Virus record (IMG/VR): IMGVR_UViG_3300032235_000623
Location: 1-64,000 of that record
DNA from: a virus
Length of the DNA stretch: 64,000 bases
Reading direction: 5' to 3' (one strand)
Position numbers and translations under genes: made by a program. Positions within the stretch are counted from its first letter, which is position 1; each line of letters begins with the position of its first letter. Below the pieces are notes generated by a model. It saw nothing but the letters and a program-made list of their open reading frames with translations, was not told where the DNA came from and ran no database searches. This document shows, piece after piece, positions 35,273 through 38,390 of this stretch.

Positions 35273-35318
35273 AAGAAAAATAAAACAAATGTTAAAGAAG
35301 AATAGGTATACCTACTAA
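35241..35318 (+). CDS. Basic micro-peptide ending in RYTY (25 aa)
   Basis: MIKIIKRIIVKRKIKQMLKKNRYTY; AAGGAG RBS; TAATG coupling to carbamoyltransferase. Confidence 0.6.
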   Translation: MIKIIKRIIVKRKIKQMLKKNRYTY

Positions 35319-36757
35319 TGATTATTTTAGGCATTAATGAAACATCACACGATGCATCAATATCCTTGATAAAGGATGGTGAGATACTATTTGCTGGACA
35401 TGCTGAAAGATACAGTAAAAAAAAGAATGACTGGTATAACAATAATGAAATTTATCTTGATATGCTTAATTATGGAACACCAACCCATATAGCATACTAT
35501 GAGCATCCAAGATTAAAACAATCAAGAATTATGTTGAGAGGCGGTGCTTCAGACTGGAAGCCAAGCATACCATTTGATCTACCAGTTAAATACTTTAGTC
35601 ACCACTATTCTCATGCATGTGCTGGATATTATACAAGTAAATTTAAAGATGCAGTAATTGTTGTTCTTGATGCAATAGGTGAATGGAATACATCAACAAT
35701 ATGGGTAGGCGAAGGCGAAGAAGTTAAATCGGTAAAGAAATTTAATTATCCAACAAGTTTTGGTTTATTCTATTCTGCATTTACTAAGCTACTTGGCTTA
35801 AAGCCAAATGAAGAAGAATATATAATGATGGGGATGGCTGGGTACGGTGATCCAGACAGATACTTTGATAAAGTTAATTCTTATTTTCCATCAATTAGAA
35901 AACAAAAATATAATTTTCATAAAGGAATAAATGACTGGGATATTGAGATAACAGATCAAAATAAATTTGATATTGCAGCAGCAGTACAAAAAGTATATGA
36001 GCATAGACTTTTAGAATTTATGGAGTATGCAAAGATACTTACGGGGAAAACAAATCTTGTATTTATGGGTGGATGTGCATTAAATTGTTCTGCTAACACC
36101 AAACTATGGGATTTGTTTAATAATATTTGGATTATGCCAAATCCAGGAGATGCGGGTAGCTCATTGGGTGCAGCAGCAGCCTTATACGGCTCTCATTTAA
36201 ATTGGGAAGGCCCATATCTAGGCACTAATTTGCAAAGTAATTGGCCTAGACACGAAATACTAAAAGAGCTAAAAGAAAATAAAATTGTAGCGGTTGCGTC
36301 TGGAAGGGCAGAGTACGGTCCAAGAGCACTTGGTAATAGAAGTATATTGGCAGATCCAAGAGATCCTAATATTAAAGATAAGGTAAATCAAATTAAACAA
36401 AGAGAAAAGTTTAGGCCATTTGCCCCAGTTGTTTTAGAGCATTTTGCAAATGAATGGTTTGACATGCCAACAAGATCAACACCATATATGCAATATGCAG
36501 TTAGGTGCAAATATCCAGAAAAAATACCTTCTGTCGTACATGTCGACGGAACTTCAAGAGTCCAGACTGTAAATGAATATGACCACCCAGAACTACACAT
36601 GCTTCTCAGGCAGTGGTATTGGGAAACAGGCGTACCTATTTTATTAAATACTAGCTTAAATATTAAGGGTCAGCCACTCCTTAATGATCAAAATGATATA
36701 ATTGAGTGGCAAAATAGATATAACACTAAAATATACGGAGGAAATAATGTTTTATGA
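35318..36757 (+). CDS. O-carbamoyltransferase (NodU/CmcH/TobZ family)
   Basis: HDAS, ERY, HHYSHA, DAIGE, MGMAGYG, GGCALNC, GDAG, EYGPRALGNRSILADP, RE.FRPFAP, HVDGTSR.Q, LNTSLN. Confidence 0.95.
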   Translation: MIILGINETSHDASISLIKDGEILFAGHAERYSKKKNDWYNNNEIYLDMLNYGTPTHIAYYEHPRLKQSRIMLRGGASDWKPSIPFDLPVKYFSHHYSHACAGYYTSKFKDAVIVVLDAIGEWNTSTIWVGEGEEVKSVKKFNYPTSFGLFYSAFTKLLGLKPNEEEYIMMGMAGYGDPDRYFDKVNSYFPSIRKQKYNFHKGINDWDIEITDQNKFDIAAAVQKVYEHRLLEFMEYAKILTGKTNLVFMGGCALNCSANTKLWDLFNNIWIMPNPGDAGSSLGAAAALYGSHLNWEGPYLGTNLQSNWPRHEILKELKENKIVAVASGRAEYGPRALGNRSILADPRDPNIKDKVNQIKQREKFRPFAPVVLEHFANEWFDMPTRSTPYMQYAVRCKYPEKIPSVVHVDGTSRVQTVNEYDHPELHMLLRQWYWETGVPILLNTSLNIKGQPLLNDQNDIIEWQNRYNTKIYGGNNVL

Positions 36758-37529
36758 CAACCCAAATGTAGAAAAAGTTGGACACAAAGTTTATGTATAC
36801 AGGAATTTTGTTTCTCCAGAAAAAATGGCAGAGATAAATAAAATTTTAAAAGACATAAATGTTGATGATTTAAGAGTAGATACTTCAGATCACACGATAG
36901 ACTGGTATTACGATAAGTTTACTCAGCCTATTCCAGCTTTGTATGACGTATGGAAGGATTTAAATGATCTACTTCTTCCAGAATACTGTATTCACCCATG
37001 CCTTACCCTACTTAGTACTAAAGAGGGAGAAGAAATGTACGCTCACTCAGATAGTCCAGGAGAAGATATGGAAGACGAGCTTATTGCTTCAGATGTATGG
37101 AACACTTGTTGTGTTATCCACTACGGCGCTATAGTTTATTTTGGAGAATTTGAAGGCGGAGAGGTATACTATCCAAACTTAGATGCAGATGGTAACTTTG
37201 TAGGAAATGAAGAACCATTAAAGGCTGGCAATGAATTTAGAGTAAAGCCTAATGCTGGAGACTTGATAATTCATGGAGCTCATAGCGATACATATCATGG
37301 AGTTAAGAAGATAACATCTGGCGTAAGATATGCTTTCTCAAACTTTGTTTTACCAGTTGAAAAGAATCCAGGAACATTCCCAGTATGTGGTACTCCAGAA
37401 AATGAAGAAAGATGGAATAAGGGTCATGCAGAATGGCTAACACCAATTAATTTTAAATGGCAGCCTTCTGAAAAACTACAAAATGAAATAGACGCTGGAG
37501 TTACTGGCGTAAGATATAGAGATATGTAG
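36747..37529 (+). CDS. 2OG-Fe(II) oxygenase, prolyl-4-hydroxylase-like
   Basis: HSD, FEGGE, P.AGD, HGV..ITSG.RY; GGAGG RBS before 36747. Confidence 0.85.
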   Translation: MFYDNPNVEKVGHKVYVYRNFVSPEKMAEINKILKDINVDDLRVDTSDHTIDWYYDKFTQPIPALYDVWKDLNDLLLPEYCIHPCLTLLSTKEGEEMYAHSDSPGEDMEDELIASDVWNTCCVIHYGAIVYFGEFEGGEVYYPNLDADGNFVGNEEPLKAGNEFRVKPNAGDLIIHGAHSDTYHGVKKITSGVRYAFSNFVLPVEKNPGTFPVCGTPENEERWNKGHAEWLTPINFKWQPSEKLQNEIDAGVTGVRYRDM

Positions 37530-37579
37530 TCTATACCTATAGACAAAATCAGCGACTAATAGTATTATTAGGTTACTAA

Positions 37580-37815: not shown

Positions 37816-37939
37816 GATACTAAGGTTGCGTTGCAGGTATAGAGACTGACTCCCGACGGGGACAACTGGAGGTCAACGAGCTTATGTAAAGCCTCATGTA
37901 TCAGATTAATAAGTTAGTTTGCTCGTAGACTTATTAATC
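37816..37939 (+). ncRNA. Candidate structured ncRNA A (non-tRNA) in tRNA cluster
   Basis: GATAC/GTATC, CGTTG/CAACG, internal hairpins, 11-bp hairpin whose loop (GCTCGT) complements ACGAGC. Confidence 0.5.
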
Positions 37940-37943
37940 GCTT

Positions 37944-38014
37944 AGGGTCTAAGTGTTACGGAAGCACTACCGTCTCCAAAGCGGTAAGCCTAGGTTCGAC
38001 TCCTAGAGACTCTG
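37944..38014 (+). tRNA. tRNA-Trp(CCA)
   Basis: AGGGTCT/AGACTCT, loop CTCCAAA. Confidence 0.9.
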
Positions 38015-38021
38015 CAGCAGA

Positions 38022-38153
38022 CCACACCTCTACACCTGCCGTCGGTTGCAGAAGTACGTGTGTGCAGTTCGGGCCTAGCTAGACGACTGCATTGTGTTGA
38101 GAACGCACAAGTACGAGCCTTACGGTGTGGCACTCTATAAACCGAGTTCTCAA
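38022..38153 (+). ncRNA. Candidate pseudoknotted ncRNA B in tRNA cluster
   Basis: CCACACC/GGTGTGG, GTAC/GTAC, TGCAGT/ACTGCA, TTGTG/CACAA, loop TTGAGAAC complementary to 3' GTTCTCAA. Confidence 0.6.
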
Positions 38154-38245
38154 GGAAGATTGGCTGAGTGGTCTAAAGCAATCGGTTGCTAACTGATCGT
38201 GGGAGTTAAATTTCACCATAGGTTCGAATCCTATATCTTCCGCCA
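38154..38245 (+). tRNA. tRNA-Ser(GCT)
   Basis: Long variable arm, loop TTGCTAA, encoded CCA. Confidence 0.95.
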
Positions 38246-38319: not shown

Positions 38320-38390
38320 CAAATGGTATAATTATTTAGGGTCGCCATAAGGGGCCTTAATTTAATTTATTCGCTTAAAGGAGGAATAAA

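Follow-up and report, generated by a model that had tools for sequence, protein, structure and literature searches.

Comparative sequence evidence for a new pseudoknotted small-RNA family seated between tRNA genes of freshwater phages

Covariation among relatives indicates that the gap between two tRNA genes of an uncultured freshwater phage is filled by a member of a genuine family of pseudoknotted small RNAs, designated sp2, which is new with respect to Rfam, GenBank phages and T4, a comparison that does not extend to the 8,495 nameless RNA candidates that PMC10690425 predicted from IMG/VR. As judged from its sequence contexts, sp2 travels among phage tRNA arrays as a discrete, tRNA-bounded module, much like a tRNA gene.

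The window, i.e. the whole stretch of DNA analysed, corresponds to the first 64 kb of a 108,849-bp IMG/VR virus record with a completeness estimate of 91%. The source phage is tailed, has a GC content of about 36% and encodes its own DNA polymerase, helicase, primase and recombinase; comparison of GenBank phages with the 16 kb around the tRNA array yielded no detectable DNA similarity beyond tRNA fragments. The array lies entirely on the + strand, in the order tRNA-Arg, tRNA-Asn, tRNA-Lys, a 128-nt gap, tRNA-Trp, a 138-nt gap, tRNA-Ser and tRNA-Leu, and is followed by an Hsp20 gene. Just 5' of it, two regions of the same strand (35318-36757 and 36702-37529) correspond to a carbamoyltransferase (NodU/CmcH type) and a faint 2OG-Fe(II) oxygenase match, and a PA14-domain protein and a zinc-ribbon protein are encoded 3' of Hsp20; together these genes represent auxiliary cargo uncommon in phages. 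The features discussed below are the following (all on the + strand):

37540-37568 (+), promoter-like site just 5' of the first tRNA of the array (consensus scan, 10/12 matches)
37816-37943 (+), sp1, the neighbouring 128-nt spacer, in the Lys-Trp gap
37944-38015 (+), tRNA-Trp(CCA), 5' neighbour of the module, without an encoded CCA end (ARAGORN and Rfam)
38016-38153 (+), sp2, the whole RNA module, 138 nt, filling the tRNA-Trp/tRNA-Ser gap (tRNA calls, homologues and model)
38023-38062 (+), hairpin domain P1 (RNAalifold and pair counts; 98-100% paired)
38023-38027/38058-38062 (+), P1 helix, 5/5 pairs changed on both sides
38031-38033/38054-38056 (+), P1b, 2/3 pairs changed on both sides
38036-38039/38048-38051 (+), P1c, 4/4 pairs changed on both sides
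38040-38047 (+), loop L1, with a conserved GGUU
38063-38091 (+), hairpin P2, stem 38063-38069/38085-38091, 15-nt loop, 4/7 pairs double-changed
38092-38110 (+), hairpin P3, stem 38092-38097/38105-38110, 3/6 pairs double-changed
38098-38104 (+), loop L3, 7 nt
38118-38130 (+), CCUUACRG.GUGG, the most conserved unpaired motif, invariant in all subfamilies, not the 3' strand of a closing stem
38137-38145 (+), AUAAACYGA tail motif, invariant
38146-38151 (+), 3' strand of the pseudoknot, partner of L3 positions 38099-38104, ending 2 nt before tRNA-Ser
38154-38245 (+), tRNA-Ser(GCU), 3' neighbour of the module (ARAGORN and Rfam)

An earlier note on this DNA had drawn attention to a GC-rich spacer between tRNA-Trp and tRNA-Ser with no plausible sense gene, and both observations were borne out. 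The spacer, 38016-38153, has a GC content of 0.51-0.56 against about 0.3-0.4 in the flanking genes. No open reading frame was conserved among 35 relatives in the frames of either strand, any given frame being stop-free in at most six of them, and a protein-coding micro-gene was rejected on this ground.

Homologues were collected from IMG/VR and JGI metagenomes with exact words and gapped patterns as queries, the more divergent members being retrieved through a word from the other spacer, sp1. The resulting family comprised 35 distinct members, each 134-164 nt long and located on a contig of an uncultured freshwater phage. A covariance model (R1) describing three hairpins and no pseudoknot was used to align 27 distinct sequences, and scored 163 bits on positions 38016-38153. 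The homologue collection and covariation analysis, which the earlier note had proposed as a check, revealed a structure conserved in relatives and not one lost among them.

The + strand was shown by these comparisons to adopt, as a predicted fold, three consecutive hairpins, P1, P2 and P3. Overall, 24 of the 39 tested pairs were double-changed, and 95% of the alignment cells were paired versus 78% in column shuffles and 30-47% with slid partners; since the alignment was fitted to P1-P3 these values flatter the hairpins, and separate domain-by-domain folding of each sequence recovered the same three. The top three pairs of P3 did not vary in any of the 27 sequences, and in a long subfamily the distal part of P1 was replaced and L1 was absent. 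Assignment of the fold to the tRNA strand (+) follows from its G-U pairs, both invariant (one in P3) and variable.

The previously drawn hairpins TGCAGT/ACTGCA (38063-38069/38085-38091) and TTGTGT/GCACAA (38092-38097/38105-38110) are thus real and covarying, and correspond to P2 and P3. The topology in which they had been placed did not survive, as three of its five proposed stems were not conserved, among them the closing stem that defined it. This stem, CCACACC/GGTGTGG, was 76.7% paired versus 76.1% in shuffles. An RNAalifold run on 18 sequences instead paired the 5' CACAC (38023-38027) with a GUGUG about 35 nt downstream (38058-38062), against the drawn closing stem, and double changes were found in all five of these pairs. 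The GTAC/GTAC and ACTC/GAGT stems were 78% and 66% paired, respectively, each with zero double changes. Support for the fold is comparative and not thermodynamic: the minimum free energy of the module, calculated with pseudoknots left out, was at shuffle level (-35.6 kcal/mol, z = +1.13, 178 of 200 shuffles folding equally well or better), and relatives were therefore needed to settle the stems. A folding-energy z-score alone would have wrongly discarded a genuine RNA.

The general claim of a non-tRNA, multi-stem, pseudoknotted RNA was supported by covariation across relatives. An 8-nt complementarity between a loop and the tail (38097-38104/38146-38153) had been pointed out and is indeed present on the + strand; covariation backs its central 6 bp, 38099-38104/38146-38151. 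This helix occurred in three versions, GAGAAC/GUUCUC, GUCAGA/UCUGAC and GUCGGG/CCCGAC, and was paired at 6/6 positions in 35/35 members when the motifs were extracted independently of the alignment. On the alignment it was 100% paired versus 70% in shuffles and 33-50% when slid, with five of six pairs double-changed; as the alignment model carried no pseudoknot, the helix was not built into this result. The main subfamily taken alone is uninformative here, both sides being invariant, partly because they served as search bait. The divergent subfamilies, having been retrieved by way of sp1, are unbiased for this pairing. The arrangement is, on this comparative evidence, an H-type pseudoknot with P3 as stem 1 and the L3/tail helix as stem 2. 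Its 3' strand ended 2-6 nt before the next tRNA in 35/35 members.

CCUUACRG.GUGG and AUAAACYGA, both on the connecting strand of 35-40 nt, are the two best-conserved motifs in these RNAs. The R of the former covaried perfectly with the Y of the latter (G,C in 16 members and A,U in 19), which suggests a putative 3-bp helix 38142-38144/38123-38125. Alternatively, positions 38140-38145 may pair with L1 (38042-38047) over 6 bp, UCGGUU/AACCGA. The L1/tail pairing was kept at 95%, its changes were one-sided only, and the long subfamily lacks L1; in a shuffle test restricted to the 138-nt module of this phage, 0.08% of trials yielded two loop complements of this kind. The 3-bp and 6-bp partners of the tail motif are mutually exclusive. 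The first 5-8 nt of sp2 were variable and largely unpaired, with no compensating partner.

The loop of P2 contains the palindrome CUAGCUAG at 38075-38082. Two divergent members carried CCUGCAGG at the L2 position, and a UAGCUA palindrome, located in a hairpin loop in the examples inspected, was present in 26/35 members, which brings the total to 28/35. In the long subfamily, UAGCUA-type palindromes were located in the loop of a different, inserted hairpin. The palindrome is thus kept while its sequence, and even its host hairpin, changes. As an 8-nt palindrome is unable to fold on itself, selection for self-complementarity hints that two molecules touch through their loops, or that the binding partner is dimeric. 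Another candidate contact, between the sp1 loop GCUCGUA and UACGAGC at 38112-38118, was rejected: the site lies in a variable linker and the pairing was lost in other phages carrying both RNAs.

All 35 sp2 members filled a gap between two tRNA genes of the same strand, in at least ten combinations of flanks. The 5' neighbour was tRNA-Trp in 23 of them, Asn in ten, Arg in one and Val in one, and the 3' neighbours included Ser, Gly(UCC), Gly(GCC), Gln(UUG), Gln(CUG), Glu, Thr, Leu, Met and Arg. For several relatives (7-12 kb), the module and tRNA fragments were the sole similarity to 20 kb of the window, with up to 99% identity. Tightly tRNA-bounded relatives in dissimilar backgrounds, together with the lack of a kept reading frame, point to a discrete, non-coding, mobile and selected unit. 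Conversely, none of the 80 loci reached through the Hsp20 neighbour held a copy of sp2, and the closest Hsp20 relatives were accompanied by different or smaller arrays.

Searches beyond these contigs were negative. No sp2 homologue was found among GenBank phages (INPHARED) by distant blastn, and one exact pattern run on 185,579 prokaryote species genomes hit seven sites, all by chance and none homologous, a single exact pattern being liable to miss distant copies. Rfam 15 (4227 models, including tRNA, tmRNA, Y RNA-like, manA, Drum, ROOL, GOLLD, pistol, hatchet and twister) matched nothing in 37816-37943 or 38016-38153, even at E values up to 10, in agreement with the earlier view of an undescribed RNA that does not fit HDV/theta, twister or tmRNA; HDV-type features were likewise absent. 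In seven related loci the Rfam models recognised tRNAs only, and just tRNAs and tRNA look-alikes were obtained from Rfam at gathering thresholds and at E values up to 10. Signature words of sp2 had no match among the papers searched. Identity as tRNA, tmRNA, Y-like RNA, manA, ROOL or GOLLD was rejected since neither ARAGORN nor Rfam gave a match; for a tRNA or tRNA-like gene, ARAGORN and the tRNA model were blank in the spacer and the 7-bp closing stem was at shuffle level.

What such an RNA might do can be approached from its position. Gaps between adjacent tRNAs were bimodal, either of 0-10 nt (111 cases) or of about 120-170 nt (about 100). The module being bounded exactly by tRNA genes, tRNA processing should free it, as the earlier note had anticipated. 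No module starts with CCA, and maturation of the upstream tRNAs thus requires endonucleolytic cleavage on their 3' side. Bacterial RNase Z makes such cuts at tRNA 3' ends, and the CCA-less tRNAs of T4 depend on host RNase BN. Taken together, the CCA-less upstream tRNA and the pseudoknot end near the RNase P site have as their simplest reading a small RNA punched out of a precursor. We consider it reasonably probable that sp2 is a processed, knot-protected, trans-acting small RNA of the tRNA operon. It would be co-transcribed with the tRNAs of the array, its 5' end being made by RNase Z-type cleavage during trimming of the CCA-less upstream tRNA and its 3' end by RNase P, which would cut where the downstream tRNA begins, 2-6 nt past the pseudoknot. 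The pseudoknot would bury this terminator-less 3' end and let the RNA persist, the invariant AUAAAC probably bracing the knot along the invariant top of P3 (a minor-groove fit). Action in trans would proceed through the unpaired CCUUACRG.GUGG and the palindromic loop, the likeliest mode being binding of a protein or of a second copy and not antisense pairing. As a counterpoint, the variable and mostly unpaired 5' nucleotides would normally expose the RNA to decay dependent on the 5' end.

Signals for a common transcript were sought around the array. The promoter-like site at 37540-37568 is a weak candidate for the start of a common tRNA/module transcript, as the number of such sites in the region was no higher than in shuffles. 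An internal promoter in the module (TTGAGA ... TATAAA) was discarded because of its 33-nt spacing and the replacement of its first T by G in several relatives. The terminator scan found no terminator-like site within the tRNA array. Between tRNA-Leu and the Hsp20 start, positions 38321-38390 (+) contain a short inverted repeat rich in GC, with an A/T-rich run behind it; this element was not called by the terminator scan and may be the end of the tRNA transcript. Six freshwater or riverine metatranscriptome runs shared 11-24% of the sampled words of the 841-nt array. Among the neighbours examined, no RNA-related protein gene co-occurred with the module; those found were a small HNH-like ORF, a lysozyme-like protein, a glycosyltransferase and a ribonucleotide reductase.

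The main competing explanation is a role in cis, in which the fold would organise the maturation of the adjoining tRNAs, chiefly tRNA-Trp, perhaps by presenting or timing the RNase P and RNase Z sites, and would have no role after cleavage. We regard it as unlikely. The recurrent order module-Leu(UAG)-sp1-Trp(CCA)-sp2 and the frequency of tRNA-Trp as 5' neighbour speak for it, as do the other module family placed 5' of the same tRNA-Trp, the short distance from the pseudoknot end to the RNase P site of the next tRNA, and the fact that all other tRNAs of these arrays abut directly. Against it, most tRNAs of the same arrays mature without such a spacer. Moreover, ten distinct members sit between Asn and Gly or Ser with no adjoining tRNA-Trp, others follow Arg or Val, and the strongest conservation resides in internal motifs, far from both cleavage sites. 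A new class of self-cleaving ribozyme trimming the end of the neighbouring tRNA appears distinctly improbable. Theta ribozymes, minimal HDV-like elements found beside gut-phage tRNAs and proposed to process tRNA 3' trailers, offer a precedent (PMC10879173): like them, sp2 would be a structured, pseudoknotted RNA adjoining phage tRNA genes. The module of the window follows a CCA-less tRNA without a gap, and a pseudoknotted core with invariant unpaired nucleotides is typical of catalytic or ligand-binding RNAs. Against this, sp2 matched no Rfam ribozyme family at E values up to 10, is about twice the size of theta and comes from freshwater instead of gut phages. The uncompensated variation of its first nucleotides leaves no HDV-type P1 at the tRNA junction, and its three hairpins with an H-type knot differ from the nested double pseudoknot of HDV-like ribozymes; HDV-like or theta identity was rejected as neither a P1 at the first nucleotide nor a nested double pseudoknot with a catalytic C in J4/2 was found. 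Host RNase P and RNase Z also suffice for many directly abutting tRNAs.

Near-identical copies in otherwise dissimilar phages could also be expected of a selfish element acting at the DNA level, such as a homing-endonuclease target or a recombination module spreading among arrays without RNA function. In 13/17 loci the array has near it a small ORF whose HNH match is weak (E 0.0026, short of the Pfam cut-off), and the homing endonuclease SegB is encoded in the T4 tRNA region. However, compensatory changes in sp2 keep G-U pairs of one strand, implying that selection acted on RNA or, at the least, on one strand, and not on duplex DNA, and no HNH-like ORF is present beside the array of the window; this reading is accordingly given very little weight. 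The HNH-like ORF itself (e.g. L086:1884-2165, +, about 93 aa) is found 150-1200 nt from the module, on the same strand, with homologues in 13 of the 17 module loci, and could be a homing endonuclease that shuffles tRNA/RNA modules, comparable to SegB. Finally, the main-subfamily tail, AUAAACCG followed by AGUUC, resembles the 5' handle and start of a type I-E repeat, enterobacterial repeats of this type (PMC9201451) ending in GGGGATAAACCG and beginning with G(T)GTTC, so that an RNA anti-CRISPR mimicking the crRNA handle could be envisaged. The exact 8-nt match is found in 16/35 members, whereas 19/35 have AUAAACUG, a change that covaries with the structural partner. The next 6 nt are the covarying pseudoknot strand, wholly different in other subfamilies, the hairpin of I-E repeats is absent, and the likeness was spotted post hoc. 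The resemblance, lost in the covarying subfamilies, was set aside as a structural coincidence, and such mimicry is scarcely credible.

The preferred reading, a processed and knot-protected small RNA, can be compared with several known systems. In MALAT1/mascRNA, RNase P cutting at a tRNA-like structure makes the 3' end, which is protected by a knotted or triple-stranded structure in place of a terminator or tail. MALAT1 is a eukaryotic, nuclear and much longer RNA with a U-rich/A-rich triple helix. The likeness to sp2 would lie in a 3' end made by RNase P and a buried 3' structure, protection being presumed for sp2, which differs by its origin in a bacterial phage, a real downstream tRNA and a 6-bp H-type pseudoknot. 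In E. coli, 3'ETS-leuZ is a sponge derived from a transcribed spacer of a tRNA precursor and freed by tRNA processing; sponges from tRNA-operon spacers in this bacterium are short and little structured, and pair with known sRNAs. The candidate sp2 RNA would share with 3'ETS-leuZ an origin in the spacer of a polycistronic tRNA precursor. In contrast, it is highly structured and mobile, and a search of the window for a pairing partner was blank, the tail complement being limited to its own site and one chance match with two mismatches.

The closest parallel in phages is that of T4, in which rnaC (139 nt) and rnaD (119 nt) lie directly against tRNA-Arg and against one another, and their products RNAC and RNAD (species 1 and species 2) accumulate as stable RNAs with an unexplained role (PMC3014915, PMC9697503). 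As with sp2, these are non-tRNA RNAs of 119-139 nt in a phage tRNA cluster, on the tRNA strand and abutting a tRNA gene. No sequence or structure homology between them and sp2 was detectable, and model R1 run with filters off over the T4 tRNA region gave at best 4.1 bits (E 1.3). The T4 pair is located at the end of one sub-cluster, whereas in the sp2 phages modules of at least five families alternate with tRNAs; accumulation has been demonstrated for the T4 RNAs and is a prediction for sp2. By analogy, sp2 may be seen as sharing the genomic logic of RNAC and RNAD without being their homologue. ROOL and GOLLD are uncharacterised structured RNAs of phages and prophages, often near tRNA islands, that form RNA-only complexes through kissing loops (bioRxiv 10.1101/2024.12.08.627333). 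The palindromic hairpin loop of sp2 could likewise kiss a second copy; ROOL and GOLLD, at 500-800+ nt and with dozens of helices, are far larger than sp2 (134-164 nt).

The array-bearing phages form a freshwater group with genomes of roughly 105-112 kb, and their long spacers (about 125-180 nt) belong to at least five sequence families, sp1 to sp5, without a match in Rfam; structure was analysed for sp1 and sp2. The typical order is Gly, sp3, Leu(UAG), sp1, Trp(CCA), sp2 and Ser/Gln (loci L156-L184, L101, L097 and others). For sp1 (37816-37943 in the window), 33 distinct homologues of 124-132 nt were found, always flanked by tRNAs, and 11 of 36 predicted pairs showed compensatory changes; no Rfam match was obtained. 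In its predicted fold, GAUAY/RUAUC closes a multi-branched 5' domain, which is followed by a 3' hairpin of 12 bp whose loop GCUCGU can pair with an internal ACGRGC, the A/G change keeping a wobble pair. By the same comparative approach, sp1 is another family of structured RNAs that, like sp2, occupies tRNA gaps. Another spacer, 'sp8', located between Arg and Leu (L161:4774-4907, -, and L182), is 134 nt long and AT-rich, with an open frame from ATG CCT AAA GAA, and may be a micro-ORF rather than an RNA module.

Beyond the preferred reading, two bolder ones may be formulated, although their joint probability is low: either the palindromic loop (CUAGCUAG, CCUGCAGG or UAGCUA) mediates an RNA-only dimer or higher assembly, or the knotted core, which is invariant, is a catalytic or ligand-binding RNA of a new kind that controls phage tRNA maturation. 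If the assembly reading were true, sp2 would be a miniature counterpart of the ROOL/GOLLD cages near phage tRNA islands.

Phage tRNA clusters are commonly taken as cargo for codon supply or anti-defence, and the two small RNAs of the T4 tRNA cluster have been a puzzle for fifty years. Two covarying families, one of them with a pseudoknot, suggest that 'tRNA-punctuated' small RNAs may be a general and diverse phage strategy and not an oddity of T4. Both sp2 and sp1 provide compact, alignment-backed targets for structure determination, for processing studies of 3' ends presumably made by RNase P and protected by a knot, and for the question of how the phage benefits.
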